From the NCBI GenBank assembly GCA_035717985.1, contig DASTHW010000014.1:145691-209690 (forward strand): 64,000 nucleotides of DNA, read 5' to 3'. Numbering within the stretch: position 1 is the stretch's first letter; each line of letters starts with the position of its first letter. The DNA is from Candidatus Saccharimonadales bacterium. Its GTDB lineage: Bacteria > Patescibacteriota > Saccharimonadia > Saccharimonadales > UBA10212. The notes below the pieces were generated by a model. It saw nothing but the letters and a program-made list of their open reading frames with translations, was not told the origin of the DNA and made no database searches. Made by a program: the position numbers and the translations under genes. This document shows, in pieces, positions 4,711 through 55,834 of this stretch.

Positions 4711-6309
4711 ATGGGTGGCGAGCGTCAAAAAGAAGAATTGTCTACCGAGCGCCGGGCGGCGCTTTTGGGTTTTAAATACGTCGATACCAGCAAGGTTCAA
4801 AAACAGCTTTATAAAACTATCCTATCGGTACCCGAGCTTTATTCTGACCGAGTGGTGCCGCTGGTAGCCGATGAACACTATATAAATTTCGGCATTACGA
4901 CTACCACCTCCCAGCAGACTCTAAACGGCCTGCGCCAGCGTTTTACTGACCAGCGCCTGGAATTTTCGATCATTAGCGACAGCGGCTGGCAGGAGTATAT
5001 GCACCTTTATGATCCGCCCAAAAAGATTGAATATCAGGATATCGATATTGCCTCTGTCGACGATGCCAAAAAGCGCCTAGAGCAAGTCAGTGCCACGCTG
5101 GAGAAGGTCCGCCCCGACGACATGCTGGCTTATTTAGTTCAGCAAGCCTACCAGCTAAAAGCCAGCGACATCCATCTAGAAAACCAGCGCGATGATGTGC
5201 GGGTGCGCTTTCGGGTAGATGGGGTCCTGCATCCGGTAGCTAATCTCAGCCGTGAAAAATACCGCCACCTAGTTAGCTCGATTGCCAGCTCGGCTAATGT
5301 CTCTACCGACGCCCGCGACGCCCAATCCGGCCACATCAGCCGCGGCTTTACGCTGGCCACCGGCGAGCAGGTAACGGTTAACCTTCGGGTCGAGACCGTG
5401 CCGGCCGTATACGGCATGGACGTTGTAATGCGTCTGTTTAATCTAAAGCTCGAGTATTTCCAGCTGGATAATTTGGGTTTGGACTCAGCTGAGGCGGCTG
5501 TAGTTCAAGATATCATCGCCCACCCCACCGGCATGGTGATGGTGGTGGGCCCAACCGGCTCAGGCAAAACTACTACGCTATATTCAATTATTAACACCTT
5601 AAATAAGCCGGAGCGAAAAATTATCACCCTGGAAGATCCGGTGGAATATAACCTGCCGGGGGTGGTGCAGATACCGGTCGAGGGTCAGCTGGAGGGCCAG
5701 GGCTTTGCCGAAAAACTGCGGGCGGTACTTAGGCTGGACCCAGATGTAGTCATGGTTGGTGAAATCCGCGACCCCGATACTGCCAAAACGGCTCTTCAAG
5801 GGGCGCTGACCGGCCATCTGGTGCTATCTACTTTTCACGCCGCCAGCGCCGTGGCGGCCCTGACCCGCCTTCAGGATATGGTGGGCGCTAACCCGTTGTT
5901 TGCCAGTGCCATCCGTCTGATAATGGCCCAGCGGCTGGTGCGCCGCCTAGACGACGCTACCAAGCAGGCTTACCAGCCCGACCAGGCCTTAAAAGATAAA
6001 TTAAAAGAGGTTATTGACAGCCTGCCGGCTAGTATAGAAAGGCCGAACCTAGACTCCTTAACTCTCTATAAACCCGGCAGTTCAGCGGCTAACCCGTTTG
6101 GCTTTACCGGCCAGCTAGCCATCCGCGAGCAGTTAGTAATGACCCCTGGCGTGCAGGCTCTTTTAGGCGGCAGTTTAAATGAGGCTAACACTGATTCTTT
6201 ACAGGCCCAGGCTGTTAGCGAAGGCTTAAAAACCATGCTAGCCGATGGCGTACTTAAAGCCATTGCCGGTTTAACTACCATTGAAGAAGTCTACCGTGTC
6301 GCCGGCTAG
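4711..6309 (+). CDS. pilB: PilB/GspE-family secretion/type IV pilus assembly ATPase
   Basis: 532 aa with Walker A (GPTGSGKTTT), Walker B (VMVGEIRD) and a His box (GHLVLSTFH). No other pilus genes are adjacent. Confidence 0.85.
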   Translation: MGGERQKEELSTERRAALLGFKYVDTSKVQKQLYKTILSVPELYSDRVVPLVADEHYINFGITTTTSQQTLNGLRQRFTDQRLEFSIISDSGWQEYMHLYDPPKKIEYQDIDIASVDDAKKRLEQVSATLEKVRPDDMLAYLVQQAYQLKASDIHLENQRDDVRVRFRVDGVLHPVANLSREKYRHLVSSIASSANVSTDARDAQSGHISRGFTLATGEQVTVNLRVETVPAVYGMDVVMRLFNLKLEYFQLDNLGLDSAEAAVVQDIIAHPTGMVMVVGPTGSGKTTTLYSIINTLNKPERKIITLEDPVEYNLPGVVQIPVEGQLEGQGFAEKLRAVLRLDPDVVMVGEIRDPDTAKTALQGALTGHLVLSTFHAASAVAALTRLQDMVGANPLFASAIRLIMAQRLVRRLDDATKQAYQPDQALKDKLKEVIDSLPASIERPNLDSLTLYKPGSSAANPFGFTGQLAIREQLVMTPGVQALLGGSLNEANTDSLQAQAVSEGLKTMLADGVLKAIAGLTTIEEVYRVAG

Positions 6310-6360
6310 AGCATATAAGGTTGATTTTTAAGGTGTTTTTCGCTAGAATAATCTAGATTT

Positions 6361-6960
6361 ATGCAAAGTGTGGCGCAGAAAATTCAGGCCAAGTATCAAA
6401 AGAAAGCCGTCGTTGATGTAAAAAGCGGCGATACGGTTCGTGTGCACCAAAAAATTGTTGAGGGCGGCAAAGAGCGGGTTCAAATTTTTGAAGGCCTAGT
6501 AATTAAAGTATCCCGGCGCGCCAGCCTTACTCAAAGCTTTACAGTCCGGCGGATTGCCAGCGGCGTGGGTGTTGAAAAAACGTATCTGATTCACTCGCCT
6601 AACGTTTTAAAAATAGAGGTGGTTAGGCGAAGTAAGGTCCGCCGCAATTACCTAAGCTATATGCGCGGCCTTACCGGCAAAAGTGCCCGCTTGAGCGGAG
6701 TTGACTTTGACCGCCGGGCAGTTAATGCCGTACACGACGAGCAGGCCGAGGCTGAAGAAGCCAAGCTACATGAGCAAGCTGAGAGCCAGCACGAGGCGGC
6801 TGAAGCTGAAAAAACAGCTGAAAAGCAAGCCGAAGAAACCAAGGTAGCAGAAGCACTAGCCGCCCGCCAAACTGACGCCGAGAAGATTGAAAATCAGCCC
6901 GCTACCAAAAGCGACGCTAAAGCTCCGGCTGAGCCCCAAAACAAAGAAGAAAAGTCTTAG
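6361..6960 (+). CDS. rplS: 50S ribosomal protein L19 with long A/E/K-rich C-terminal extension
   Basis: The L19 core (VRVHQKIVEGGKERVQIFEGLVI...) occupies the first ~115 aa. About 80 further low-complexity residues follow. A TTGATT-17-TAGAAT promoter lies at 6321-6349. Confidence 0.9.
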   Translation: MQSVAQKIQAKYQKKAVVDVKSGDTVRVHQKIVEGGKERVQIFEGLVIKVSRRASLTQSFTVRRIASGVGVEKTYLIHSPNVLKIEVVRRSKVRRNYLSYMRGLTGKSARLSGVDFDRRAVNAVHDEQAEAEEAKLHEQAESQHEAAEAEKTAEKQAEETKVAEALAARQTDAEKIENQPATKSDAKAPAEPQNKEEKS

Positions 6961-7469
6961 TAAAGAATAAAAAACGTCCGTCCGGAACTGGGCAGGCGCC
7001 TAACGGCTACGCCGCTGGCATAGGCTACGCCGGCTGAGACCGGTTCGCCTCTTCTGGTAACGGCAAAACCGTGGCCGGCTAACGGGTCGAACTGATAGAC
7101 CGCAAAATCTCCAGCCTCATTTATATCTCCATTGCCGTACATCATTAGACTGACGTGCCGGTCATCGTCAACTACCGGCACGGCGGTGGTCCGTACTAAA
7201 CTAAACGGCTCGCGTGTGGCTAGTAGTGAAGAGCTGTCCGGCCTAGCTAGGTGTCTAGTTTGATATGTTATTGGTTCTGCTGGGGTCACTTCTATAACTA
7301 ACGATTCGTCTATCAAGACCGTGAGGTCTCTTGGCTCGACTGCTGGATTACTGCTTAAAATATCCTCCATATCAATAAGGCACCGACGGAGATTATCCTT
7401 CAGTTCGTCGCCTTTTGAGATCGCCTCTTGCTCTTGGCGGCTGGGTCCTGAGTTTGCTTCACCCATCAT
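6957..7469 (-). CDS. hypothetical protein (170 aa)
   Basis: Long ORF with no competing frame and no recognisable domain. It is convergent with rplS and overlaps it by 4 nt. Confidence 0.5.
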   Translation of the reverse strand: MMGEANSGPSRQEQEAISKGDELKDNLRRCLIDMEDILSSNPAVEPRDLTVLIDESLVIEVTPAEPITYQTRHLARPDSSSLLATREPFSLVRTTAVPVVDDDRHVSLMMYGNGDINEAGDFAVYQFDPLAGHGFAVTRRGEPVSAGVAYASGVAVRRLPSSGRTFFILY

Positions 7470-7531
7470 TGATACAGAATTTTGGCATAAGCAATCGTGG
7501 GCGCGAAGTAATATTTGTTACACTTATCTTT

Positions 7532-8110
7532 ATGGACGGGGAAGTTGGTATAGATGAGGTGGGTAGGGGGTGTCTAGCCGGACCGCTTTTGGTCGTAGCG
7601 GCAAGGGTAAACGGGGCTCTTCCCCTGGGGATCAAAGACTCAAAATTACTGACTCGCTCTCAACGAGAAGCTATATATCAACTGCTAATTACTAACTGCC
7701 AATTTGGCGAAGGCTGGGTAAAACCAGCTGAAATTGACCGGCTGGGGCTAACCGCGGCCACCCGGCTAGGCGTCCGCCGAGCGTTAAAAGACCTAGGCGT
7801 CTCTAAGATATCGACCATTATCATTGACGGCAACATAAACTACGCGCCAAGCTCTTATAAGAATGTACAAGTGCTTATTGACGCCGACGCGCTGGTGCCA
7901 ATAGTCAGTGCCGCCAGCATTTATGCCAAGGTTATCCGTGACCAGCACATGCGCCGCCTGGCGGCTAAGTATCCGCATTACGGGTGGTCTACTAATGTTG
8001 GCTACGGCACGGATTTTCACCTGAGAGCCCTTAGCCGGCTGGGCCCAGTCAAATACTTACATCGGCAAAGCTTTGCGCCACTGCGTTTATCCGCGGAGGC
8101 GGCCGAGTGA
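7532..8110 (+). CDS. rnhB: ribonuclease HII
   Basis: GIDEVGRGCLAGPL motif. I placed the start at ATG 7532, behind TGtTACACT (7516-7524), rather than the ORF-track start 7415, which overlaps the divergent gene. Confidence 0.9.
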   Translation: MDGEVGIDEVGRGCLAGPLLVVAARVNGALPLGIKDSKLLTRSQREAIYQLLITNCQFGEGWVKPAEIDRLGLTAATRLGVRRALKDLGVSKISTIIIDGNINYAPSSYKNVQVLIDADALVPIVSAASIYAKVIRDQHMRRLAAKYPHYGWSTNVGYGTDFHLRALSRLGPVKYLHRQSFAPLRLSAEAAE

Positions 8111-8460
8111 GCAGGCCCAGCCCGACTAGCCTCGGTAAAGCCGCCGAGGAGGCCACCGCCGAATACCTACGCAAAGGTAGTTATGAAATCTTAGAGCTTA
8201 ACTGGCGCCGGCGGACCTGCGAAATTGACGTTATCGCTAAAAAAGACGAGATTATTTACTTTGTTGAAGTGAAATACCGTACGGCCGCTAGCCAAGGTAG
8301 CGGGCTAGACTACATAACGCCAAAAAAGCTTAAGCAGATGCGCTTTGCCGCCAATTTTTGGGTGGCTGAGAATAATTGGCCTGGGGACTACCGGCTAATG
8401 GCGGCCGAGGTGGCGTCTGATAATTTAAAGCCAAAGCTTAGCAAGCTGGTTGAAGTCTAA
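8107..8460 (+). CDS. yraN: YraN-family (UPF0102) endonuclease-like protein
   Basis: 117 aa with the EIDVIAKKDEIIYFVEVKYR core. It overlaps the rnhB stop by 4 nt, which is the usual rnhB-yraN pairing. Confidence 0.85.
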   Translation: MSRPSPTSLGKAAEEATAEYLRKGSYEILELNWRRRTCEIDVIAKKDEIIYFVEVKYRTAASQGSGLDYITPKKLKQMRFAANFWVAENNWPGDYRLMAAEVASDNLKPKLSKLVEV

Positions 8461-8801
8461 ACAAAAAGTTCTTTTAAAAGTTCCGGTGGTCGATTTAGGC
8501 CACTCGCATGAATCTCCAGCTTAAGGCGGTATTCACCCGGGAAGACCAGTCCGGCTGTGTGAATGCGTGTTTGGCTCATAGTCGGCAAGTAGTTTATGCG
8601 GCTAACAGCTTGCTCGGTAACTTTATTTTTTTGAATATATTCTATTTTTGCCGCTAAGATTTTTAGCTCGGCGGTGTTAAGGGTAAAGCGTTTGTTTGGG
8701 CGCCCGGTCCGCCTGCCGGCTACCTCAAGATAGGTTCTGCCGCCGCTAGTTTTAATTTCCGCTGAGTCAGCTTTAAAGCTGGGCTGTCCGGGTTTAGCCA
8801 T
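8457..8801 (-). CDS. hypothetical protein (114 aa)
   Basis: ORF with its own extended -10 (TGCTACAAT on the minus strand at 8808-8816) 6 nt before the ATG. No recognisable domain. Confidence 0.55.
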   Translation of the reverse strand: MAKPGQPSFKADSAEIKTSGGRTYLEVAGRRTGRPNKRFTLNTAELKILAAKIEYIQKNKVTEQAVSRINYLPTMSQTRIHTAGLVFPGEYRLKLEIHASGLNRPPELLKELFV

Positions 8802-8818
8802 AGCTAAATTGTAGCAAT

Positions 8819-9460
8819 TTAATATTTAAGGTTAACCAGTTTCTGGATCTCACTTCGTAAAAATTGCATGAATGCGGGCTCATCATCCTTACTGGAGGGC
8901 GGATCTATCGGTTCCCCAAAGACAACTTCTGCCCGGTGACCGCGGACTGCCTGACCAAAAGTATCAACGCCACGAATGGCCGCAGGAATGGTAGGCGCGT
9001 CGCCCAAGTAGGCCCAACGGGCCACACCCGGAAACATTTCACCAAGTTCACTATTTTGCCGGCGAGTGCCCTCCGGCATAACGCCAACCAGGCGGTCGTC
9101 TTTTAGTCGTCGAACGACTTCCTTCATGGTCGAAGGCCCCGGGTTCTCCCGGTTAACTGGGATACTTTCCCATTTACTGAACAAAGTGCCCATAATAGGT
9201 GTGTCGTACACCTCTTTTTTGGCCACGATTGATAGATGCCTTTTGGGAATGGCGGTAGGTAACATAAAAATATCTAACCAGTGGCGATGGTTAGCCGCTA
9301 CCAGTGCTCGGCCCTCTTTGGGAATGTTTGCCTGCCCATAAACTTTCATACCTAGCAGTACTCTCTCTAGACCTCTAACCATTAAGTATGAGGATAGATA
9401 TAAAGACCAAGCCTTATCAACTTCGCCAAACGGCAAATTTTCCCTGGAAAATCTGGGCAT
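8819..9460 (-). CDS. plsC: 1-acyl-sn-glycerol-3-phosphate acyltransferase-like (LPLAT family)
   Basis: 213 aa with an HxxxxD motif (NHRHWLD) and an MPEGTR motif. Confidence 0.85.
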   Translation of the reverse strand: MPRFSRENLPFGEVDKAWSLYLSSYLMVRGLERVLLGMKVYGQANIPKEGRALVAANHRHWLDIFMLPTAIPKRHLSIVAKKEVYDTPIMGTLFSKWESIPVNRENPGPSTMKEVVRRLKDDRLVGVMPEGTRRQNSELGEMFPGVARWAYLGDAPTIPAAIRGVDTFGQAVRGHRAEVVFGEPIDPPSSKDDEPAFMQFLRSEIQKLVNLKY

Positions 9461-9610
9461 AGCGATATTTTTAACAGTAATCAGCTATTTTGTCCAAAGC
9501 TTGTGCTTAAAATAATCCTATACAGGCCGGCAAGCGTGTGCTAGTATTAAGTAGTTCAATCCGGCCGGAAAGGTCGGATTTTCACTTTTAAAGAACCAAA
9601 AAAGCATTTA

Positions 9611-9658
9611 CCAATTAACATATTTTCATTTAACAATTAATTATCAATTTACATTTGC
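9611..9658 (+). repeat. AT-rich CCAATTWACA-type repeats upstream of nusA
   Basis: CCAATTAACATATT lies at 9611-9624 and CAATTTACATTTGC at 9645-9658. The latter 14-mer recurs at 39901-39914. Confidence 0.4.
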
Positions 9659-9730
9659 AAGTACTCACAAGAGCGCTTTCAGGAAAGCTGGAAAATGGAA
9701 AATGATAAGAGAGAAACGGAGTGAAACGAC

Positions 9731-10930
9731 GTGGAAATGGATTTTAAACAACTAGCCCAAGCTATTAGAGTAATAGCCGAGGAAAAAAACTTGCCGGAAG
9801 ACCAGGTAGCCGATGTAGTTCAGCAGGCCCTAGCCGCCGCGTGGCGCCGCGATTACGGCGACCGCGAGCAGGAAGTGCGGGTAACTATGAACTTAAATAC
9901 CGGCGAGGTGACAGCCTACGTTACTAAAGAGATTGTTGACGATGTAGAAAACCCCAATACCCAGATAGGCCTATCAGCCGCCCAACTTATCCGTAAAAAT
10001 GCCAAAGTCGGCGAAACGATAGAGCAGAGCCAGAAGGTAGAGGATTTTGGCCGGGTGGCCGCTCAAACCGCCAAACAGGTGATCTTGCAAAGACTGCGCG
10101 AAGCCGAGCGCGAGATTGTGCTGGCTGAATATGAAGATAAGATCGGTGCCCTGGTTAACGGCATCATCAGCCGGGTGGAGGGCCGCTTGGTGCGGGTTGA
10201 ACTGGGCCGGGCACAAGGTATTATGCCGGCCAGTGAACAAATTCAGGGCGAGCGCTACTACCCTGGTCAGCGCCTTAAGTTTTTCTTAAAGGATGTTGAA
10301 AAAGGTTTTCGTGGGCCCCAGCTGATAGTCAGCCGCGGTAACCGAGAGTTTGTAGAGCAGTTATTCCGCGGCGAGGTCCCGGAAATGGAAAATAACTCTG
10401 TCGAAATTAAGGAAATCGCCCGTGAAGCCGGCGTTAGATCTAAAATCGCTGTGGCCAGTAGCGTGCCGGGCGTGGATCCAGTTGGTACTTTTGTGGGCGG
10501 CCACGGTACCCGCATTAACGCCGTTCGAGACGAGATTGGCAGTCAAGAGATGATAGACATAGTGGTTTGGGATGAGGACCCGGCTACCTTCATTTCTAAC
10601 GCTATGAAGCCGGCTAACATAGCTAAGGTGGAACTTGATGAGTCCAATAAAAAGGCAAGGGTAATTGTAGCGGAAGACCAGCTATCGATTGCCATTGGTA
10701 AATCCGGTCAAAATGTCCGCCTGGCCGGCAAGCTTACCGGTTACGACCTAGACGTCGAAGCCGAAAAGACAGAGGGAGCGGCCGAGCCTAAAGCTGGCGG
10801 CGAGGAAGCTCAGGCCCGCCCGGTGGTGCAAAAGCTGAAGAAAAAGAGCGAGCTGGAGTCCAGCCTGCTATCAGCTATCGAAGAGCACGGCACCGACAGC
10901 GAGCCGCAAAAAGACGAGCAAGCAAAGTAA
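9731..10930 (+). CDS. nusA: transcription termination/antitermination factor NusA
   Basis: 399 aa with the NusA N-terminus, S1 and two KH regions (PQLIVSRGNREFVEQLF, SIAIGKSGQNVRLAGKLTG) and an acidic tail. The start is GTG 9731 or ATG 9737. Confidence 0.93.
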   Translation: MEMDFKQLAQAIRVIAEEKNLPEDQVADVVQQALAAAWRRDYGDREQEVRVTMNLNTGEVTAYVTKEIVDDVENPNTQIGLSAAQLIRKNAKVGETIEQSQKVEDFGRVAAQTAKQVILQRLREAEREIVLAEYEDKIGALVNGIISRVEGRLVRVELGRAQGIMPASEQIQGERYYPGQRLKFFLKDVEKGFRGPQLIVSRGNREFVEQLFRGEVPEMENNSVEIKEIAREAGVRSKIAVASSVPGVDPVGTFVGGHGTRINAVRDEIGSQEMIDIVVWDEDPATFISNAMKPANIAKVELDESNKKARVIVAEDQLSIAIGKSGQNVRLAGKLTGYDLDVEAEKTEGAAEPKAGGEEAQARPVVQKLKKKSELESSLLSAIEEHGTDSEPQKDEQAK

Positions 10931-44951: not shown

Positions 44952-45275
44952 ATGGAAGCTATAGATACGAAACTGGCCAATTTAGTTTATATGCCCGAAG
45001 GCGTTTGTTCGGCCGATTGTCCTTTGGCGCATGGCCATAGGGCTAATCCTGACTTTCTTCAAGTCTCGGTCGACGGTGGGGAAGAACTCCCGACCGGGAT
45101 TACCGTAAGCTCATTCAATGGCCGCTTGCGGACTACTGAAATACGGATACCCGGTGCCCTGCGCGCGAGTGGAGTAACTGAAATGTTAAACAAGCCAACA
45201 GGCGATGCCGTTGATGACGGGCATCTGGCCTGCAATGCGCTCTGTGCACTAGCCGCGGCCAGAAGGGGTGAGTAG
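44952..45275 (+). CDS. ORFan (107 aa, two CxxxC motifs) intercalated between rpsG and fusA
   Basis: The ATG lies 3 nt after the rpsG stop, behind AGGAG. Its TAG stop overlaps the fusA GTG (TAGTG). It carries C19xxxC23xxxHxH and H91xxC94xxxC98. Confidence 0.55.
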
Positions 45276-47362
45276 TGGCAGAGAAAAAATACGCACTCGA
45301 GCATGTTAGAAATATCGGTATCATTGCCCACATTGACGCTGGTAAAACCACCACCACCGAAGGCATTCTTTACCGCACCGGTTTGAAGCACAAGATTGGC
45401 GAAGTGCACGCCGGCGAGGCCACAACCGACTGGATGGCCCAGGAAAAAGAGCGGGGTATTACTATTACCGCCGCCGCCGTGACCTGTTTTTGGAAAGACC
45501 GCAAGATAAACATTATCGATACGCCCGGCCACATCGACTTCACGGTTGAGGTGGAGCGGAGCCTGCGCGTGCTAGACGGCGCGGTAACCGTTTTTGACGG
45601 CAAGATGGGCGTGGAGTCTCAATCAGAGACCGTCTGGCGCCAAGCCGACAAATACGGCGTGCCCAGAATTTGTTTTATCAATAAGATCAACCAGACCGGC
45701 GGCGATTTTTATAAATCGCTGGAGTCTATCCACCACCGCTTAAATAAGCGGGCTTTCCCGATCCATCTGCCAATTGGCTTTGAGCAGTCCGTTAAGGGCA
45801 TAGTCGACCTGATTGATATGAAGGCCTATACCTATAACGAGTACACCGACCACGAGCTAAAGGTAGGTGAAATCCCTTCTGATATGGCCGATTCTGTTAG
45901 AAAATACCGCTCGCTTTTGATTGAAAACGCCGTCGCCGAAGACGAGCAAATGCTGGAAAAGTATTTTGAAGTTGGCGAAGAAGGCTTAAGCGAAGATGAC
46001 ATTAAAAAAGCTATCCGCTCAGCCGTACTATCGGGAAATTTCTTTGCCGTCACCGGTGGTGATGGCCGCGGCGTGATTGTTGAGAAACTTCTAGACGCGA
46101 TTGCCGATTTTCTGCCTAGTCCGATTGACCGCGGTTCCACCTGGGGCACTAACCCCAAAAGCGGTGACGAGCTGGAGCGAAAACCTGAGGAATCAGAGCC
46201 ATTTTCAGCTTTGGCCTTTAAGATTGCCACTGATCCGTTTGTCGGCAAGCTAGCTTTTTTTAGAGTTTATTCAGGTAAGGTAACGGCCGGGAGCTATATC
46301 TTGAACAGTTCTACCGGCGAGAAAGAGCGCGTCGGCCGGATTGTGCGGATGCACTCTAATGACCGGACTGATGTTACTGAAGTCGGCGCCGGCGACATTG
46401 CCGCCATTGTGGGCCTTAAAGGCACTACTACCGGCAATACGCTTTGTGACCCCGCGAGCCCCATTTTGCTAGAAAGTATTACTTTCCCAGAGCCGCCGGT
46501 GTCTATCGCTATTGAGCCTAAAACTAAGGCCGACCAGGAAAAAATGAGCCTGGCGCTGGGCCGCCTAGCAGAAGAAGACCCGACCTTCCGCATCCGGGTG
46601 GACCACGAGACCGGCCAGACAATCATCTCTGGTATGGGTGAGCTTCACCTTGAAATTATTGTCGATAGAATGAAGCGGGAGTTCACAGTGGAGGCTAACG
46701 TAGGCCAGCCGCAGGTAGCCTACCGGGAGACCATCCGTAAAGACGGCGTCGAGGCCGAGGGTAAATTTATACGCCAGTCCGGTGGCCGCGGCCAGTACGG
46801 CCATGTTTGGCTAAGATTATCTCAAAATGAGGCCGGCAAGGGCTTTGAGTTTATCAACAGCATCAAAGGCGGCGTGGTACCCAGCGAATATATCCCCGCT
46901 ATCCGTAGTGGTATTGAAGAAGCTATGAGTAATGGTGTGCTGGCCGGCTACCCGGTTGTCGATATCCGGGCAGAGCTTTATGACGGCTCTTTCCATGAAG
47001 TTGACTCCTCTGAAATGGCCTTTAAAATTGCCGGCTCTATGGCCCTCCAAGAAGGCGTCAAAAAGGCCGCGCCGGTGCTGATGGAACCAATTATGAAAGT
47101 TGTCGTCGTGACACCGGAAGATTTTATGGGTGATGTAATCGGCGACCTTAATGCTAAGCGCGGCCGAGTTGAATCAATGGATGACCTGCAAAACTCAGTT
47201 AAGCAAATTACAGCCTTTGTGCCCTTAGGCGAAATGTTTGGCTATACCACTAACCTGCGTTCAATGACTCAAGGTCGAGCCTCAAGCTCGATGGAGCTAG
47301 ACCACTACGCCGATGTGCCGGGTAATGTAGCCCAAGAAATCATAGCTAAATCCGGCAAGTAA
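45275..47362 (+). CDS. fusA: elongation factor G
   Basis: 695 aa with [20 protein letters not shown] and NKINQ, and all five EF-G domains. GTG start behind GGGGTGAG. Confidence 0.97.
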
Positions 47363-47367
47363 GCTCT

Positions 47368-47808
47368 ATGTCCACCGAAAATAGCGGCAGTAGATTGGAT
47401 GAAATCTACTTCCTTAAAACTGAGGACGCCGCTGATCTTAGCTCGGCTAATCCGTTAGCTCGGTGGCGCGCCTTTGATCATTTGCCTGACTCACTTTCGC
47501 CGGCTGATATTGGTTATATTGCTCAGCACGTTCACCGAACACACTATTACGCCGGTGAGCGCCGAATCCGTGCCTACCAACGCCGGGCTATAAAATCAAT
47601 CGGCGACCTGTCTCTTTCAAGGACCTTGCAGAGCGAGGAGTCTGCCCCGGTAGCCGATATTGCTACAGCCGCCAGTGCGGCCGCTTGGCTGGAGCGAGGC
47701 TCACTTTTATCTAGATTTTATGCCAGACGCCTGAGGGCTAAAATCGAGACCGAAATTGTTGATTTTTCGGCCAAGCTAGATTCACCCCAAGGCCAAGAAA
47801 GCTTATAG
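47368..47808 (+). CDS. ORFan (146 aa) directly after fusA
   Basis: The ATG lies 5 nt after the fusA stop. There is no competing frame, no clear SD and no known domain. Confidence 0.5.
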   Translation: MSTENSGSRLDEIYFLKTEDAADLSSANPLARWRAFDHLPDSLSPADIGYIAQHVHRTHYYAGERRIRAYQRRAIKSIGDLSLSRTLQSEESAPVADIATAASAAAWLERGSLLSRFYARRLRAKIETEIVDFSAKLDSPQGQESL

Positions 47809-47856: not shown

Positions 47857-49386
47857 GTGAGGAGACGAATCTTAAGGCCTATCAGACCTATTTTTATTGG
47901 CGCCGGCTTTAAGGGCGTGACTCCGTCTATGGCTCTTCGCTCGGTTACTAGTAAAAACGGTATGGGCGTTTTTGCCAGCTCGGATCATCTATATAAAAAC
48001 GCCGTTTTTGGCCGCGATTCACTGGAAGTGGCCGAAGATTTAATGCCCATTCGCCGAAAACTAGTCGAGCGGATACTGCTGACTTTGGCTAGTCTGCAGG
48101 GTGAGACGCTAAACGAGGATAATGAAGAAGAACCCGGCAAAATTATTCATGAGTATCGCTCTAGCCGGATTGACGGTAAGCCGATAGACGATCACTCGGC
48201 AGAAATTCTGCGCCGGCTGAGCGAGCGCTGGGGTGGCACCACCAGCCAGCTGGCCTACTACGGTTCGGTAGACTCTACGCCGCTATTTTTGAGGGCTGTT
48301 TATTGGTACTGCACGCTTTACGGCAAGACCATTTTAGATAAGCGGGTTCAGTTACTCAGCGGTCACATCCAGACTTTTTCTAATGTGGTTGATAATGCCG
48401 CTGATTGGCTAGTTAACAAGATTAGCGAGAGTAAAAGCGGCTTGATTGAATACCACCGCCTGAACCCCAAAGGCATTGAAAATCAGGTCTGGAAAGATAG
48501 CAATGAATTTTACGTACATACTAACGGCCGTCCGGCCAACCATGCCGGCCCAATTGCCTCTGTTGAGGTTCAGGGGCTAGCTTACGATGCCCTGCTGGCC
48601 GCCGCCAAAATGCTAGACCATAGAGCCGATGAGTTAAATGCTTTAGCCGCTCAGCTCAGAACCCGGACGCTTGAGCTCTTATGGATTCCCCAGCTCGACT
48701 ATTTTGCTTTAGGGGCCGACTACGACCAAGATGGGCGCGTAAGACTAATTGAGACTATTACTGCAAACCCGGCTGAACTACTGGATACTACCTTTTTCGG
48801 TGGTATGCCTAGCGAGCAGGCTCAACGGATGATTAGTGGGATTGCCCACCGCATACTTGGTCCCGAGTTTTTAACTGACGCCGGCGTCAGAAGTCGCTCA
48901 TTATATGAGGCGAATCTAGTCTCCTTCTGGGATTATCACGGCAGTTACACCTCTTGGCCTAAAGAAACTTATGATATTGCCAAAGGCTTTAAGCGTCAGG
49001 GCCTGCCACGCCTGGCTTATGAGCTGGAGAATCGCCTGCTTAATATGACTCGGGCCATGAAGTCCTTCCCTGAATTTGTCTATGTAGACCTGCGCGGCCG
49101 GGTAATGGGCATGCCAAACCGCCGTACCAGCCACGGCCAGCTAGTCTTTGTCGATAGTAAAAATAAGCCCGAAAAAGTCCAGGCCTGGACGGTCTCGGCT
49201 ATTACGGCCATTAACGCCGCCAAACGGCCCAGAAAATTTAAAACTAGCGATAGCTGGCAGGCCAAACTTGAAAGCGAGATGCTAGCCGACATTCCACACA
49301 TGCCAAAACTTAAAACTCAAAAAGAACTTTCTGCCCGCTATCCAGCCTACCCCTATAAATTGATTGATAATCAGCTAGTCCAGTAA
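47857..49386 (+). CDS. amylo-alpha-1,6-glucosidase / glycogen-debranching-enzyme C-terminal-domain-like six-hairpin glycosidase
   Basis: 509 aa with GDE_C-type motifs (VFGRDSL, PGKIIHEY, QVWKDSN). The start is GTG 47857 (6 nt after TATAAT) or ATG 47929. Confidence 0.7.
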   Translation: MRRRILRPIRPIFIGAGFKGVTPSMALRSVTSKNGMGVFASSDHLYKNAVFGRDSLEVAEDLMPIRRKLVERILLTLASLQGETLNEDNEEEPGKIIHEYRSSRIDGKPIDDHSAEILRRLSERWGGTTSQLAYYGSVDSTPLFLRAVYWYCTLYGKTILDKRVQLLSGHIQTFSNVVDNAADWLVNKISESKSGLIEYHRLNPKGIENQVWKDSNEFYVHTNGRPANHAGPIASVEVQGLAYDALLAAAKMLDHRADELNALAAQLRTRTLELLWIPQLDYFALGADYDQDGRVRLIETITANPAELLDTTFFGGMPSEQAQRMISGIAHRILGPEFLTDAGVRSRSLYEANLVSFWDYHGSYTSWPKETYDIAKGFKRQGLPRLAYELENRLLNMTRAMKSFPEFVYVDLRGRVMGMPNRRTSHGQLVFVDSKNKPEKVQAWTVSAITAINAAKRPRKFKTSDSWQAKLESEMLADIPHMPKLKTQKELSARYPAYPYKLIDNQLVQ

Positions 49387-49472
49387 GATTTTGGCGGCGA
49401 AGATTAGCCTAATTAAAAGCGATTATTCTTACAGCCTCACCTTCGTATAGCTAATAGACTAGAGGCACATTC

Positions 49473-50621
49473 ATGAGAGTAGCAATTGTGGCTGACCCAT
49501 ATGTACCCATACCGCCTACCGGATACGGCGGCATAGAAAAGATAATTTATTATCTTATCCAGGGGTTGATGGAGCAGGGCCATGAGCCAATTTTGATAGG
49601 CCCGGGGGATTCAAGGGTGCCATGTGAGCTTTTGCCTACCTGCCCAAGAGCCGAGTTCTTTCCTAGTGACACAGCAAAACTGCCGGCTTTTGAAGCTAAG
49701 GTTAGAGATATTAAAAAGCGGAGCAGGAACATCATTCGAGAGATTTTGCCGCGGGTAGATATTATCCATTCGCACGGTTTTGATTTGTCTAGCTTTAGGG
49801 ACTATCCAAACCTAACTACCTTACATGGTCCGATTAATCTGCATCAGTTAAAGTACTATCATTCCGATATCAGAAAGAGTCTTTATTATGTAGCTATTTC
49901 TAAAAATCAGGCGGCGGCCCTGCCTAGCCTGCAGTATGTCGGTATCGTTTATAACGGTGAAGACCCCAAAGAATTTCCAATTATCCAAAACCCTGATAAT
50001 TACGTTTGTTTTGTTGGCCGCTTTGACCGCGAAAAGAACCCGCATCTGGCCATCGAGCTGGCGCTGAGCCTGGATATGAAGATAAAGTTAGCGGGTAAAG
50101 TAGATTTTCAGGGCCGCGACTATTTTGATCAGGAGATTAAAAAATATCTTGACCATCCGCTAGTTGAATACTTGGGTGTTTTGCCGCCGGAAGACAGCGC
50201 CAAGCTTATGGCGCACGCCCGCTGCAACCTTCATCCTACCGGATTTCGTGAGCCTTTTGGGCTGACGATTTTGGAGGCCGCCTATGCCGGCACGCCGACG
50301 TTGGCTATTGCCCGCGGCGCTCCGCCAGAGATTATCGAGGACGGCCGAACAGGTGTGCTGGTAGAGGACTTTGTCGAGGGGCATCATTTGCTTAACGATT
50401 GTTTTGAGATGGACCGTGCCTACATTGCCGCTCGCGCCCGCGCTCTATTTAATTATCAGGTCATGACCAAGCAGTACATCAGAGCCTATCAGAAAGTCAT
50501 CGGCCTGATGGGGATAAAGCGGGCTCAGCGTAGCAGACTGCAGAATTTAACCGCTAAAACAATTCGAGAACTGCGTCATATTTGGGAAGATTCGGTCGGG
50601 CCGCCGGATTCTAACGATTAA
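49473..50621 (+). CDS. GT-B glycosyltransferase, family 4-like
   Basis: 382 aa with the N-terminal GGIEK motif and a C-terminal E-x7-E region (EPFGLTILEAAYAGTP...GRTGVLVED). Confidence 0.88.
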   Translation: MRVAIVADPYVPIPPTGYGGIEKIIYYLIQGLMEQGHEPILIGPGDSRVPCELLPTCPRAEFFPSDTAKLPAFEAKVRDIKKRSRNIIREILPRVDIIHSHGFDLSSFRDYPNLTTLHGPINLHQLKYYHSDIRKSLYYVAISKNQAAALPSLQYVGIVYNGEDPKEFPIIQNPDNYVCFVGRFDREKNPHLAIELALSLDMKIKLAGKVDFQGRDYFDQEIKKYLDHPLVEYLGVLPPEDSAKLMAHARCNLHPTGFREPFGLTILEAAYAGTPTLAIARGAPPEIIEDGRTGVLVEDFVEGHHLLNDCFEMDRAYIAARARALFNYQVMTKQYIRAYQKVIGLMGIKRAQRSRLQNLTAKTIRELRHIWEDSVGPPDSND

Positions 50622-50684
50622 AGCTAAAGCCCTAGACTAAAAAATAATTGCTAAATCATCAAAATAAGTCTTATATATATTCTG

Positions 50685-51632
50685 ATGAGAGGTGAGGAGA
50701 AAACAGCTTTTGGCTTTCCAGGTCAAGGAGCGGATTATTCGGAGCTGGTCCGGGACTTAACCGACGAGAACATTGTAGGTCAGGAAACGGCCGATATTGC
50801 CAATGAGGTTATTGGTGAGGTTAGTGACGCCTCGGAAGTAGATGTTTTAAAGCTGGCTCGAGAGGGCACTGAAGACGAGCGGGTCGACACCAGAAACGCC
50901 CAAATTATTCTACTAGCCGGCGGTGCCGCCGGGGCGGCCTACTTAATGAAGAAGCGAAAGATTAACCCAGATTTCGTGCGGGGCCATAGTGCGGCCGCTT
51001 TTACGGCGGCGGCCGTCGGCGGCGCTTTAGCTTTACGTCAAGCCGCCATTGCTATCAAGGAACGGGGCATTTCGATGCATGAAGCGTCCATTGAACATCC
51101 AGGTGGGATGGCCGCCGTTAAAGACATCTCTTTAGAGAGACTAGATACCATCTGCCAAAACGTCGGAGCTTTTATCTCTAATTTAAATTCACCTATTCAA
51201 ACCATTATCGCCGGACCGCACGAGGCGCTGGAGGAAGCCAAGAAGAAAATTACTCAGGCTGGCGGCAAAGCTACGCTTTTCCGTAATTGGAAAGCCGGAA
51301 TTGCTCATACACCCCATGTAATGGTGGTCCAGGAGAGGTTAAATGAGATCCTGGGACCCAATATCGTCAGCGACTCAACAATTGCGGTAGTTAAAAACAG
51401 AGATGGTAAAGCCACCAAAGAGGCTGAGCAAATCCGCCAAGACTTAACCGCCGCCGCCGAACAGGTCAGATGGGCCGCCGGCACCGAGACTCTAGATGAG
51501 GAAGGCGTAGTCCGGCATATAGAGGTCAGCTCTAAAAGCAAGAGGGTTATATCCAATCTGCTGAAGGAGCATGACCTGAGAGAAGGCGTCGAGATTGAAC
51601 ATATCAGCGAATTAATGGACGAGGAGAAATAA
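50685..51632 (+). CDS. divergent FabD-like acyltransferase (malonyl-CoA:ACP transacylase fold)
   Basis: 315 aa with FPGQGADY (canonical GQGSQ), GHSAAAF (canonical GHSLGE), ERGISM and AHTPHVM. It appears to have its own promoter with the ATG close to the -10 box. Confidence 0.75.
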   Translation: MRGEEKTAFGFPGQGADYSELVRDLTDENIVGQETADIANEVIGEVSDASEVDVLKLAREGTEDERVDTRNAQIILLAGGAAGAAYLMKKRKINPDFVRGHSAAAFTAAAVGGALALRQAAIAIKERGISMHEASIEHPGGMAAVKDISLERLDTICQNVGAFISNLNSPIQTIIAGPHEALEEAKKKITQAGGKATLFRNWKAGIAHTPHVMVVQERLNEILGPNIVSDSTIAVVKNRDGKATKEAEQIRQDLTAAAEQVRWAAGTETLDEEGVVRHIEVSSKSKRVISNLLKEHDLREGVEIEHISELMDEEK

Positions 51633-51636
51633 ACCC

Positions 51637-52638
51637 ATGAGTGAAATACCTATTATAATTGCCAGAAATCCCGGCCAGGGTTCACAGTATCAGGGCATGG
51701 GCGAGGTGGCGGGGGACTGCGCCTGGGCTCAGTATACTTTTGACGAGGCCACCGAAATATTAGCTAAAGATAACCGGCTGTACGAGGGTAGCCGTATTGA
51801 TATCCGTTGGCTGGTAACTGAAGCCGACGACGAAACGCTCGCTCAAAACCATCTAACTCAACTGGCCATTTTTGCTTCTACCATAGCCGCCCAACGGCGG
51901 CTGAGTGTCGAACAACCGGATATGGGAGCCGACATTTGGGCCGGCCACAGCATTGGCGAGTACGCCGGTTTAGTAGATGCTGGCGTTTTAAGTTTTGAAG
52001 AGGCTCTACTACTAGTTGATGCCCGCGCACGCTATATGACCAGCGCCGGAGATCTAGCCAGGGCAAAGGGTCAGGAAGGCGGCATTGGTGTAGTGATTGG
52101 CGATCCGGAGGCTGTCGAGAGATCGGCTGGTAAAAACGACGTTTATATTGCCAACTACAACAATCCTAAGCAGACTGGCGTATCTGGCGCTAAAGACGAT
52201 CTAGCCGGCGTTAAAGAGGAGTTTGGCAGTCGATATATAGAGATTCCGGTCAGCGAGGCGGTGCACTCTCCGTTTATGTCCTGGGCGGAATATAAGCTAC
52301 GAAATTACATCGGTGACGGCCACGACTTCAAAGATCCGGCTCCGGAAACTGTGGTTCTAAATTACACCGGCCGCTTTGCCGAGTCCGGACAGGAAATAGC
52401 TCAGAACGCGCCTATGCAGGTTACCAATCCCGTTATGTGGCTCCCCGGCATGGAGCTGGCACTGATTGACTACGTAGATCATGATAATGCTCCCCCGGTT
52501 ATACTGCTCGAAGTGGGCGCTAAAATGGTCTTAAGCGGTATAGATAAACACTTCGCGCGTAGCTATCCAAACGTTAAGATTGTCACTTTTGAGCAGGCTA
52601 TTAAGACCGGTCTAGACCCCGAAAGCCTAGCGGCTTAA
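51637..52638 (+). CDS. FabD-like acyltransferase (malonyl-CoA:ACP transacylase family)
   Basis: 333 aa with PGQGSQYQGMG, the GHSIGEYAGLV nucleophile elbow, an Arg in DARARYM and VHSPFM. The start lies 4 nt after the previous stop. Confidence 0.8.
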   Translation: MSEIPIIIARNPGQGSQYQGMGEVAGDCAWAQYTFDEATEILAKDNRLYEGSRIDIRWLVTEADDETLAQNHLTQLAIFASTIAAQRRLSVEQPDMGADIWAGHSIGEYAGLVDAGVLSFEEALLLVDARARYMTSAGDLARAKGQEGGIGVVIGDPEAVERSAGKNDVYIANYNNPKQTGVSGAKDDLAGVKEEFGSRYIEIPVSEAVHSPFMSWAEYKLRNYIGDGHDFKDPAPETVVLNYTGRFAESGQEIAQNAPMQVTNPVMWLPGMELALIDYVDHDNAPPVILLEVGAKMVLSGIDKHFARSYPNVKIVTFEQAIKTGLDPESLAA

Positions 52639-52819
52639 GCCGCCCCCCTTAACTAACCCTTGGCTAAGGTATTTACAATATAAGCGTTTTTCACTATACT
52701 TACGGGGTAATTTGCGCGTGAGTGGCTATTGCTGTTATGCGCTAAAATCATTATTTAATTTAAGACTAACCGGCTGGCGGTTACTAGAGTGACCCAGGCG
52801 GTGATAGAGGAGACAATAA

Positions 52820-54004
52820 ATGGCAGAATCCTTCGACCGAAGCAAGCCGCACGTCAACGTTGGGACCATGGGTCATGTCGACCACGGTAAGACCACTTTA
52901 ACCGCGGCTATCACCACGGTGCTAGCGAAGCGCCTACCATCGGCAGTTAACAAGCCGATAGCTTATGATCAGATCGATAACGCGCCGGAAGAAAAACAGC
53001 GCGGTATCACCATCGCTACTTCACACCAGGAATACGAGAGCGAAAAGCGCCACTACGCCCACGTAGACATGCCCGGCCACGCCGACTACATTAAGAACAT
53101 GATTACCGGTGCCGCCCAGATTGACGGTGCTATTTTGGTGGTCAGCGCCGCTGACGGCCCTATGCCCCAGACCCGCGAGCATGTACTTCTGGCTAAGCAA
53201 GTCGGGGTCCCCTCTATCTTAGTTTTTCTAAACAAGATGGACCTGGCTGACCCGGAGCTGGTTGAACTAGTCGAGGAAGACGTCCGCGACCTACTGGCAA
53301 AGCACGATTTTGACCGCGAAGCCCCCATTATCAAGGGTTCTGCCACCAAGGCTCTAGACGGCGACAAAGAAGCTGAAGATGCCATCATGGAGCTAGTCAA
53401 AGCCATGGACGACTACATTCCTGAACCAAAGCGTGAGCTAGATAAGCCGTTCATGATGGCCATTGAAGACGTTTTCTCCATCAAGGGCCGTGGCACCGTG
53501 GCTACTGGCCGCATCGAAACCGGCATAGTTAAGGTTAACGACGAAGTTGAAATTGTTGGTATCCGTCCCACTACCAAGAGTGTGGTTACCGGCGTGGAAA
53601 TGTTTAAGAAGAACCTAGACCAGGGCCAAGCCGGCGACAACGTTGGTATTCTGCTCCGCGGTATCGAGCGCGACGACATCGAGCGCGGTCAGGTGCTAGC
53701 CAAGCCCGGCACCATTACTCCGCACACCGAATTTGACGCCGAAGTCTATATCCTAAACAAGGAAGAGGGCGGCCGTCACACCCCGTTCTTTAAGGGCTAT
53801 AAGCCGCAGTTCTACTTCCGCACCACAGACGTAACCGGCGAGGTAGAACTACCGGCCGACAAAGAAATGGTCATGCCTGGCGACACCGTCACCTTTAAGG
53901 TAAAACTACTGGCCCCGATCGCCATGGAGCAGGGCTTGCGCTTTGCTATCCGCGAAGGCGGACGCACCGTCGGCGCTGGAGTTGTTACCAAAATCAACAA
54001 GTAA
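52820..54004 (+). CDS. tuf: elongation factor Tu
   Basis: 394 aa with [18 protein letters not shown] and NKMD. It has a GAGGAG SD and a TTTACA-17-TATACT promoter about 130 nt upstream. Confidence 0.97.
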
Positions 54005-54005
54005 G

Positions 54006-54287
54006 ATGATTCACAGTAGAGAAGGTCACCCTATTTCGCCAGAAGCCCTGAGCGCTAACAGAGCCAGAGTTGGCTACGTTATGGAAAAATGGGGTCGCCT
54101 TCGTGAGTATTATCAACCAGAAGTTGATGGTTTGAGCAGTCCGAATGTGCACTTGCGTGAAGCCGTCACGCCGGTTACGGCCACAGCCGTAATAAGGGAC
54201 ATTAACTCGAAATATGGAGTCTTTTTCCTTCGCGACAGTGAAGTTGCGCATAAGCTGGTGAGGTCACAGGAACAGGTAGAGCTTTAA
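54006..54287 (+). CDS. ORFan (93 aa) intercalated between tuf and rpsJ
   Basis: The ATG lies 1 nt after the tuf stop. Its TAA overlaps the rpsJ ATG (TAATG). No known domain and a weak SD. Confidence 0.5.
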
Positions 54288-54622
54288 TGGCAGAGTCTAA
54301 AAAAACTGAACCGGAGATTAAGCAGAGGATCCGTATCCGCTTGAAGGCCTATGACCATAAGGTCATTGATCAAAGTGCCAAGCAGATTGTTGATACGGCT
54401 ATTCGCACCGGCGCCAAAATTGCCGGCCCTATACCGCTACCGACCCGCAAAAGCACCTTCACGGTGGTTAAAAGCCCCCACGTCTACAAAAAAGGCCGCG
54501 AGCAGTTTGAAATGCGTATTCATAAAAGGTTGATTGATATCACCGATCCCACACCCAAGACAGTAGATTCTCTAATGAACTTGTCTCTGCCGGCCGGCTG
54601 CGACGCTGAAATAAAGATGTAA
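54287..54622 (+). CDS. rpsJ: 30S ribosomal protein S10
   Basis: [26 protein letters not shown]...GPIPLPT. Confidence 0.95.
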
Positions 54623-54886: not shown

Positions 54887-55834
54887 CTAATCCACTAGGC
54901 GTCGGTATTCAGCCATAAAATCGGCCGCCGGTCCCTCTTCGTCACTTAGCTTGTCGACGGACTTGGCAATTGCTGAGATGGTAGCAAGTTCAATTTCTCT
55001 ATCTACTAAAGCCTGGTCTAATGCCTCTGCCAGTTCTGCCCGGCTGGGCTCGTCTGCCAGCAGGGCTCTAACGGCTACATCTTTCAGGCCTGGGCTTAAA
55101 ATTACGAAATTGGGGTCAGATCCGGCCAGCATTTCATTAACCGGTTCATCCGGCAGGACCACAGCTGAGCTTTCTAGGTATAAATTATCAATCCGGCGCC
55201 GGAGTTCATCTAAAAATATTGTTTTAGATTTACTACCTCCGGCCGGCGGCTCCATCGGCTCGCCAAAAGCCACTCTAGCCGCCCGCCGCTGGCCGCGTTT
55301 TAGTGGGTTGTCCTGCCCGGAAATCGCCGCCGGTACAGTCGGGGCATTATGCCGGCGAGCAAAGCTGGCGACACCCGGCTTGAAAGGGCCAAGATTAGGC
55401 CGGGGATCAGATTTTCGTAAATTTTTATCGCCGCGGGTTTCTTCCGAAAAAATACCCACGGCTTTGCCCTCAGCCATCGGCCGGTCGACTGCCCGGTAAT
55501 TATCCCCGGAGAAGCCGTGGCGCTTTATTTGAATTACGCCGGTATGTTTAAAGAACCACTGGATAAATGGGTTAGATGAGTAGTCGTCGCGGGCCACCAT
55601 AAGTAAAGCTCTGTCGCGTACCGCAAGAGGAAGTGTTAGGGAGTCCAAGAGGGAGCGGTGATTAGAGGCTACCAAGACGGCTCCTTCACTTGGTATATTT
55701 TCGCGCCCGCTCACCTTAAGGCCCAGGGCCAATTGGGCCAGCGGCTTATATAAGCAGTAAGCGCCCGTATACGTTAGCCGGTTCCGCCGGCTATCCAGCT
55801 CGTTATAGCGCCATAAAATATCAATTCCGCTCAC
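54887..55834 (-). CDS. LPLAT-family acyltransferase with ~100-aa C-terminal extension
   Basis: 315 aa with HxxxxD (NHRSLLD) and an EETRG-like motif. GTG start, tightly following the upstream basic-protein ORF. Confidence 0.8.
   Translation of the reverse strand: MSGIDILWRYNELDSRRNRLTYTGAYCLYKPLAQLALGLKVSGRENIPSEGAVLVASNHRSLLDSLTLPLAVRDRALLMVARDDYSSNPFIQWFFKHTGVIQIKRHGFSGDNYRAVDRPMAEGKAVGIFSEETRGDKNLRKSDPRPNLGPFKPGVASFARRHNAPTVPAAISGQDNPLKRGQRRAARVAFGEPMEPPAGGSKSKTIFLDELRRRIDNLYLESSAVVLPDEPVNEMLAGSDPNFVILSPGLKDVAVRALLADEPSRAELAEALDQALVDREIELATISAIAKSVDKLSDEEGPAADFMAEYRRLVD

Follow-up and report, generated by a model that had tools for sequence, protein, structure and literature searches.

Two adjacent genes in a 64,000-nucleotide (nt) stretch of a Candidatus Saccharimonadales genome (GenBank GCA_035717985.1, contig DASTHW010000014.1; this whole stretch is hereafter the window) encode the FabD-fold proteins AT-A and AT-B. 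From their sequences and structural models, both are predicted to be anciently diverged, catalytically competent, stand-alone acyltransferases (ATs). They cannot be the ordinary FabD of a self-contained type II fatty-acid synthase (FAS II), and they belong to a lineage that is without any known route to the holo form of acyl carrier protein (ACP). The pair is accessory cargo of a slot that lies between fusA and tuf and is itself conserved although its contents vary. We tentatively propose that AT-A and AT-B supply FabH, FabF and a FabG-like reductase with malonyl groups on a foreign or unrecognised carrier, for the extension of scavenged acyl chains.

Bacteria of the Candidate Phyla Radiation (CPR) are held to be without fatty-acid synthesis and to recycle lipids, according to the available portion of one report (PMC12455944). 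Models of oral Saccharibacteria contain neither ACP nor ACP-using reactions in the excerpted part of another (PMC6609349). A preliminary description of the window had reported two adjacent, paralogous FabD-fold genes 4 nt apart, had regarded the first as degenerate, and had proposed for them a heteromeric or non-FAS role in acyl transfer. In the literature searched, neither a fusA-tuf slot nor FabD-like genes of Saccharibacteria were found to have been described.

In this study, we examine the two proteins, the remainder of the fatty-acid pathway in their genome, and the chromosomal position and relatives of the genes. Family-wide counts refer to 49 genomes, this genome (G000) included. Of the AT-positive genomes of the family, 22 are relatives of this one, and AT neighbourhoods were compared in 18 of these.

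AT-A and AT-B retain the FabD active site

The position, spacing and paralogy first reported for the two genes were all borne out (Table 1). The TAA stop codon of AT-A is followed by four bases and the ATG of AT-B, ahead of which lies a GAGGAG stretch resembling a Shine-Dalgarno site. Both proteins match the Pfam family Acyl_transf_1 (PF00698; cut-off 32.7 bits), AT-A at 60.6 and AT-B at 79.1 bits, and an alignment of the two spans 269 residues, of which 21% are identical (E 1e-8). They are the only PF00698 matches in the genome, which comprises 835,603 bases in 16 contigs and is 96.06% complete. Among NCBIfam models, fabD (TIGR00128) ranks first for each protein, at 130.4 bits for AT-A and 129.6 bits for AT-B, and the runner-up for both is mdcH (TIGR03131; 115 and 102.2 bits, respectively, against a cut-off of 297.9).

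AlphaFold2 models of the two proteins have pLDDT values of 96.2 (AT-A) and 95.9 (AT-B) and a pTM of 0.94. When the PDB was searched with Foldseek, the top matches of AT-A were solved FabD proteins (3k89 and others; TM-scores 0.86-0.89), and that of AT-B was E. coli FabD in 6u0j (TM-scores 0.82/0.88). Both proteins have the acyltransferase fold, in which an alpha/beta core is joined by a small ferredoxin-like subdomain. A search of the ESM Atlas with AT-A returned generic FabD clusters only.

The sequence motifs originally ascribed to each protein are present. Alignment to solved FabDs places the catalytic positions at Gln14, Ser102, Arg127 and His208 in AT-A, and at Gln14, Ser105, Arg130 and His210 in AT-B. 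We take the E. coli FabD counterparts to be Gln11, Ser92, Arg117 and His201. Of these, Ser92 and Arg117 are also quoted in the available part of PMC11775670. In a 25-sequence alignment of AT-A with relatives and generic FabDs, Q73, S102, R127 and H208 are invariant and P12, G13, Q14 and G15 are conserved in at least 90% of sequences; the invariant columns of the AT-B alignment include G103, H104, S105, G107, E108, R130 and H210.

A HMMER scan of 1.84 billion representative sequences with AT-A yielded 12,899 homologues (E<=0.001), just five of which share 39-46% identity with it. When these five were aligned with AT-A and its relative in genome G009, the RGHS motif, R127, H208 and an N-x-NSP-x-Q motif were invariant, and the odd motifs of AT-A recurred in G009 and in the five library representatives (identity at least 39%). 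Because its variant motifs are conserved within its own subfamily, and because Gln, Ser, Arg and His are all retained, AT-A is, judged by its sequence, a member of a small conserved subfamily and not a decayed copy; the label of degeneracy does not hold.

The wider family presents the same picture. All 21 family ATs compared, which are otherwise 24-40% identical to AT-A or AT-B, have intact open reading frames (ORFs) and the catalytic Ser, Arg and His, and the oxyanion Gln is found in 20/20 of those that cover the GQG motif (the ORF of G065, as called, begins past it). Nonsynonymous divergence (dN) in AT pairs ranges from 0.18 to 0.71. Synonymous divergence (dS) is saturated in six of seven pairs, for which the NG86 method returns no estimate, and is 4.16 in the seventh, leaving no usable ratio.

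An incomplete fatty-acid pathway

The preliminary description had stated that the pair has neither ACP nor ketosynthase (KS) partners nearby. This is correct for the 64-kb window, in which no gene of either kind was found, but does not extend to KS in the genome as a whole. Intact, adjoining fabH and fabF genes lie at 87954-90251 of contig C14, 57 kb upstream of the window, with an isochorismatase gene on one side and a gene for an RNA-recognition-motif (RRM) protein on the other. FabH passes the NCBIfam model NF006829 (297.3 bits vs 249) and has the Cys-His-Asn triad; FabF has Cys-His-His and scores 368.4 bits against a cut-off of 387. The fabF-type gene is the sole match to the KS family PF00109 in the genome. 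Four short-chain dehydrogenase/reductases (SDRs) were matched, one of which is FabG-like (TIGR01830, 209.8 bits; cut-off 297.75). A single acyl-CoA ligase scores 238.7 bits as a long-chain ligase and 226.1 bits as a malonyl-CoA synthase, both under the respective cut-offs.

No carrier protein was recovered from the genome. Searches of the genome for ACP and other phosphopantetheine-binding domains (PF00550, TIGR00517) gave nothing credible, and no ACP was found in it by phmmer and tblastn with an ACP-like protein of the relative G067. A phmmer search with the ACP of G238, a genome of the same order, and a three-sequence hidden Markov model (HMM), run over 10,104 six-frame segments, returned nothing below E 0.7. 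As a positive control, the PF00550 search did recover the 79-amino-acid (aa) ACP of G238. The lone TIGR00517 match (14.2 bits, E 0.028) looks spurious; the protein that contains it has 624 aa, is rich in Glu, Gln and Lys, and belongs to no known family (L005 922-2796; G000 C14:25466-27340). Nor did the genome yield a 4'-phosphopantetheinyl transferase (PPTase) of the AcpS/Sfp type (PF01648), FabA/FabZ, a MaoC dehydratase, PlsX, or the carboxyltransferase of acetyl-CoA carboxylase (PF01039), and the MdcC model TIGR03130 matched nothing at E<=1. At 96% completeness, the genome is likely to be truly without ACP and PPTase.

Because none of these components (ACP, PPTase, FabZ/FabA, MaoC, PlsX and the carboxyltransferase) was detected in the genome, the pair cannot be the ordinary FabD of a self-contained FAS II. 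The earlier proposal of a non-canonical role is thereby strengthened. Its counterpart, a full FAS II encoded elsewhere together with a decaying duplicate, does not describe this genome: no complete set was found, neither copy reaches the fabD cut-off, and AT-A is not decaying. The two PlsC-like acyltransferases that had also been pointed out in the window are real, and both are encoded on the minus strand (Table 1).

Distribution across the family and order

A FabD-like AT (PF00698) is encoded in 23/49 genomes of the family, a KS (PF00109) in 16/49 and an acyl-CoA ligase in 26/49. ACP (PF00550) and FabA/FabZ (PF07977) were each detected in 2/49, and PPTase (PF01648) in 0/49. Among AT-positive genomes, 22/23 are without a detected ACP and 23/23 without a detected PPTase. 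From one genome to another the complement of fab genes varies, and it is incomplete. AT and KS occur together in 13 genomes, where 7.5 would be expected from the margins, and 13/16 KS-positive genomes carry an AT; AT alone is found in 10, KS alone in three, and neither in 23.

A divergent, ACP-like protein of 112-121 aa with a DSLD motif is encoded in two relatives (L022 540-878 in G067; L023 1450-1815 in G036). The fabF-like KS genes of relatives (L042-L055), with or without fabH, occupy a second hot slot, which runs from a gene like that for threonyl-tRNA synthetase to a tgt-like gene, beside an apparent tRNA gene; the two border genes were named by eye from their sequences. This second slot is empty in the present genome, whose fabH and fabF stand beside the isochorismatase gene instead. 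KS identities are only 30-56%. In G021 (L047 1874-3829) the fabF-like gene is adjoined by genes for an enoyl-reductase-like SDR (PF13561, 50.5 bits) and for a protein of 335 aa that belongs to no known family. The small ORFs close to relatives' KS genes appear spurious, some being antisense to tRNA genes.

Beyond the family, ATs are rare: of 194 further genomes in the order, four have a match, which in one case scores under the cut-off. G238, of another family, has a compact cluster of fabH, the 79-aa ACP gene, AT, fabF and an AMP-ligase gene (L057, G238:C1:48000-62500, about 5741-10734), with an epimerase/reductase gene, a metallo-beta-lactamase-fold gene and a weakly matching AMP-binding gene upstream. 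This cluster looks like an acquired carrier-dependent pathway. A third family has an AT with the four catalytic residues directly 5' of rplJ-rplL (L056, G213, 6454-8684; L058, G098, 5546-7709), and no ACP was detected in the G213 and G098 genomes.

A conserved slot between fusA and tuf

The position of the pair between fusA and tuf, which the preliminary description missed, is the most informative feature of the locus. Among the relatives' loci, 17/18 have the AT in the same slot, a contig end concealing one flank in three of them. The AT lies directly 5' of tuf in 16/18, and fusA is seen on the far side in 14/16 of these, the other two contigs beginning inside the slot. The contig of G017 stops just past fusA-AT, and G025 alone has its AT elsewhere. 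The gene order rpoC-rpsL-rpsG-fusA-[cargo]-AT-tuf-rpsJ is the same in relatives as in the window. We take the gene that follows tuf to be rpsJ from its position and from the gene order of the str/S10 operons.

Table 1. Coordinates of features in the window
Feature	Position	Strand	Basis
PlsC-like acyltransferase (second)	8819..9460	-	TIGR00530 89.9 bits, under cut-off 102.95
fusA (elongation factor EF-G), upstream border of slot	45275..47362	+	695-aa ORF; orthologues flank AT in relatives; EF-G domains in equivalent ORF of L039
146-aa ORF, first after fusA	47368..47808	+	No Pfam match; no homologue among relatives' slot ORFs
MGH1-like glycoside hydrolase (weak)	47857..49386	+	PF22422 19.5 bits, under cut-off 27
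GT4 glycosyltransferase	49473..50621	+	PF00534 76.7 bits; PF13439 45.4 bits
AT-A, FabD-fold acyltransferase (GQGAD, RGHSAAA, ERG, AHT)	50685..51632	+	315 aa; ORF, family matches, AlphaFold2 model, subfamily alignment
AT-B, FabD-fold acyltransferase (GQGSQ, GHSIGE, RARYM, VHSPF)	51637..52638	+	333 aa; ORF, family matches, AlphaFold2 model
Promoter-like site before tuf, TTTACA-17-TATACT	52672..52700	+	10/12 consensus positions; weak evidence
tuf (elongation factor EF-Tu), downstream border of slot	52820..54004	+	ORF; 88-94% identical across family; nearest named record Candidatus Saccharibacteria, 86%
rpsJ (S10), presumed start of S10 operon	54287..54622	+	ORF; orthologues 84-93% after tuf in relatives
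PlsC-like acyltransferase	54887..55834	-	PF01553 73.5 bits; TIGR00530 64.7 bits, under cut-off 102.95

The remaining contents of the slot vary. Orthologues of the family 4 glycosyltransferase (GT4; 53-60% identity) adjoin the AT in 7/18 relatives' loci, preceded by the glycoside hydrolase (GH) gene in the six with enough contig. The MGH1-like GH likewise has slot orthologues (55-74% identity), in G009, G066, G028, G070, G065 and G024. Wherever an orthologous GT4 is present, in these seven relatives and in this genome, the order is always [GH-GT4]-AT-tuf. In 10/17 slot loci the orthologous GH/GT4 pair does not accompany the AT; in G067 the cargo is a methyltransferase, and in G023 it consists of a GH15-like protein, an alpha-amylase and a distant GT4-like protein (27%) on the opposite strand. 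Among AT-negative relatives, G008 has fusA beside tuf, and others have a GT4, a GH or a 135-aa ORF in the slot, with GT4 or GH present without AT in G006 and G005. Since each occurs without the other, the GH/GT4 and AT modules are separable. More distant Saccharibacteria carry unrelated genes at this junction.

The fusA-tuf junction is thus a conserved but variable cargo slot, and the AT pair is accessory cargo within it, so any functional reading of the neighbouring genes is weakened. The slot should be useful for interpreting other accessory genes in Saccharibacteria. The promoter-like site between AT-B and tuf is weak evidence because the regional count of such sites equals the chance expectation. 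No RNA dataset was listed for window positions 49400-53000; the single dataset that covers them in full is a soil metagenome, which may be the source sample. Three small ORFs fill gaps in the rpsG-fusA-...-tuf-rpsJ run (44952-45275, 107 aa; 47368-47808, 146 aa; 54006-54287, 93 aa). None has a Pfam match or a homologue among the relatives' slot ORFs, and it may be that none is a gene.

Origin of the pair

A quick IQ-TREE analysis, in which the 21 family ATs were joined by 29 further FabD homologues with a generic name or none, groups AT-A with the G009 protein (support 99), with G023_A, G021 and G024 as sister (support 94), and AT-B with P0122 and G023_B (support 100). The family contributes five further clades, between which the deep nodes are unresolved, and the AT clades have diverged very far from one another. 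A constraint that makes the family ATs and P0122 monophyletic is not rejected (approximately unbiased (AU) test, p 0.65) and outscores the free quick search, a result to which long branches may contribute. A single genus can hold different AT clades (e.g., G065, G066 and G067), and the contents of the slot must therefore have been exchanged or sorted.

The tandem of an A-clade and a B-clade gene occurs in this genome and in G023 only; in G009, G021 and G024 the A-clade gene has no such partner. For the B clade, the only known sources are G000, G023 and a 1.7-kb contig, and the two clade relatives found, P0122 and that of G023, are 59% and 40% identical to AT-B. A metagenome scan for B-type loci returned three loci, of which the single B-type locus has 99.98% DNA identity to that of G023 and so is not independent. 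A profile search of genome contigs for more A-type loci found no relative.

Discussion

AT-A and AT-B are retained in a genome in which neither a carrier nor a carrier-activating enzyme is detectable, and they must therefore pass their cargo to some other acceptor. That an acceptor exists can be inferred, as an AT is needed only where malonyl must leave CoA. Retention of an AT without holo-ACP machinery leaves one of three outcomes: a carrier that the genome does not encode, a new acceptor, or a job linked to translation.

The reading that we favour, tentatively, is closest to the first of these. Each protein would accept malonyl, or another dicarboxylic group like it, from CoA on its own Ser and hand it to an acceptor other than self-made holo-ACP. 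The nucleophilic Ser, the His and the oxyanion Gln would be catalytic, and the Arg would clamp the free carboxylate of the malonyl-type group. FabH, FabF and the FabG-like reductase, fed by AT-A and AT-B, would form a truncated chain-extension set working on scavenged acyl chains, with a carrier that may be foreign (host-derived) or simply unrecognisable. AT-A and AT-B would differ in substrate or acceptor, neither being dead. The association of KS with AT across the family agrees with this reading.

Several observations weigh against a malonyl supply to FabH and FabF. No dehydratase of either the FabA/FabZ or the MaoC type, and no carboxyltransferase as a source of malonyl-CoA, was found in the genome, and AT-A and AT-B both score about half of the equivalog cut-off of TIGR00128 (260.9 bits). 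Across the family, 10/23 AT-positive genomes are without a KS, including G009 (98% complete), which has the closest relative of AT-A, and G016 (99% complete), so the AT must have a use without FabH and FabF. The AT and the acyl/malonyl-CoA ligase are not associated (both in 14 genomes, AT only in nine, ligase only in 12). We know of no case of a bacterium that uses the holo-ACP of its host. The genome is also a metagenome-assembled genome in 16 contigs from which a small gene might be missing, although the family-wide counts make this improbable as a general explanation.

The second outcome is that the two proteins, each standing alone and independent of KS, transfer malonyl (or acyl) groups to an acceptor other than ACP, or hydrolyse them. 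In our view this is unlikely but deserves serious consideration. They might, for example, O-malonylate a product of the neighbouring GT4 and GH genes, be it a sugar, a glycolipid or a small molecule, or consume malonyl-CoA obtained from the host. The KS-less genomes fit this alternative, as do the near absence of ACP and complete absence of PPTase among AT-positive genomes, the lack of a dehydratase here, and the fixed [GH-GT4]-AT-tuf order at the loci with an orthologous GT4. It accords poorly with the excess of genomes that have both KS and AT, and with the frequency at which the AT and the GH/GT4 genes occupy the slot without one another. To our knowledge, no FabD-fold enzyme has a non-carrier acceptor.

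That AT-A, as the non-canonical partner, regulates or scaffolds a canonical AT-B in an obligate heteromer we consider improbable. The 4-nt gap and the Shine-Dalgarno-like site are compatible with coupled translation, and the A-clade gene is directly 5' of the B-clade gene in both known neighbourhoods (G000 and G023). These are, however, only two independent examples of the pair, and they are offset by the solitary A-clade genes of three relatives and by the retention of every catalytic residue in AT-A. As far as is known, solved FabDs are monomeric.

Equally to be weighed is whether the ATs have any role at all. They could be leftovers of a lost fatty-acid synthase, kept through residence in a strongly expressed slot and through slow deletion, a history suggested by their patchy distribution, the varying and incomplete fab sets, and the very high divergence between AT clades. 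We regard this as distinctly improbable: the ORFs and catalytic residues of the family ATs are uniformly intact, and dN is far under the saturated dS. On the established view, genomes of 0.5-1.1 Mb shed useless genes quickly.

More improbable still, though prompted by the operon positions of these genes (fusA-tuf; rplJ-rplL) and by the assembly-factor role of human MCAT, is the third outcome, in which FabD-fold enzymes of ACP-less Saccharibacteria would have been co-opted by the translation apparatus, with ribosomes or elongation factors as their targets or partners. Such a role might tie protein synthesis to the host's supply of malonyl-CoA.

Finally, an MdcH-type protein, loading a malonate decarboxylase, or a trans-AT and acyl hydrolase (AH) pair of a polyketide synthase (PKS) pathway is scarcely credible here: mdcH is the second-best NCBIfam model, the top PDB sequence match of AT-B is the trans-AT DisD (2.5e-23), and trans-AT PKS clusters encode both stand-alone ATs and AHs (available portion of PMC11775670), but the low mdcH scores together with the lack of MdcC and PF01039 matches in the genome rule out the decarboxylase as far as these searches reach, no PKS or phosphopantetheine-binding domain was found in the genome, and an AT/AH proofreading pair is ruled out by the retention of the malonyl-binding Arg (Arg127 in AT-A, Arg130 in AT-B).

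Comparison with known systems

MdcH (TIGR03131) resembles the pair as the runner-up model for both proteins and differs in the scores, 115 and 102 bits against 297.9, and in its mdc partners, of which neither MdcC nor a carboxyltransferase subunit was found here. The carrier of MdcH is not known to need a PPTase of the PF01648 type. The ATs and AH partners of trans-AT PKS (DisD, 3SBM/5ZK4; PksC, 5DZ6; PksD, 8AVZ) are likewise stand-alone, with canonical and non-canonical members encoded together. In the available portion of PMC11775670, AHs are diagnosed by loss of the malonyl-binding Arg, usually in favour of Gln or His; AT-A, in contrast, keeps this Arg, and its genome has no detected PKS or carrier domain.

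Some Nealsonbacteria have FAS II homologues without AcpS and FabD, and an ACP-independent route has been proposed for them (bioRxiv 10.1101/465690, in part). They share with the present case a tiny CPR genome and an incomplete carrier system, and they differ in being without FabD, whereas this genome has two FabD-like genes and neither ACP nor AcpS.

Human mitochondrial MCAT, described as an assembly factor of the mitoribosomal small subunit (PMC9892005, in the part available; PDB 8CSP), belongs to the FabD family and is additionally connected with translation. It is found (8csp_8) among the structural matches of both AT-A and AT-B, whose genes lie inside translation operons. Unlike the proteins described here, MCAT also works with ACP in mitochondrial fatty-acid synthesis; the AT slot carries unrelated cargo too, and a ribosome link in Saccharibacteria would be a suggestion from gene position.

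The closest comparison is with bacterial FabD itself (E. coli; PDB 1MLA/2G2Z/6U0J; TIGR00128). The pair shares its fold (TM-scores 0.82-0.89), its Gln, Ser, Arg and His, its approximate length and its stand-alone form. It differs in scoring at half the equivalog level, in having two copies at 21% identity, in a genome without detected ACP or PPTase, and in lying outside a fab cluster, between fusA and tuf. In AT-A, the Gly and Glu of GHSxGE are missing and Asp replaces the second Gln of GQGSQ. FabD is defined in textbooks by its acceptor, holo-ACP, and a host-dependent family of Saccharibacteria keeps active-looking FabD folds without PPTase and almost without ACP. A carrier that is not self-encoded, if true, would bear on the acquisition and remodelling of host lipids by CPR epibionts; the other outcomes, if true, would give the FabD fold an acceptor that nobody has described or a second job linked to translation.

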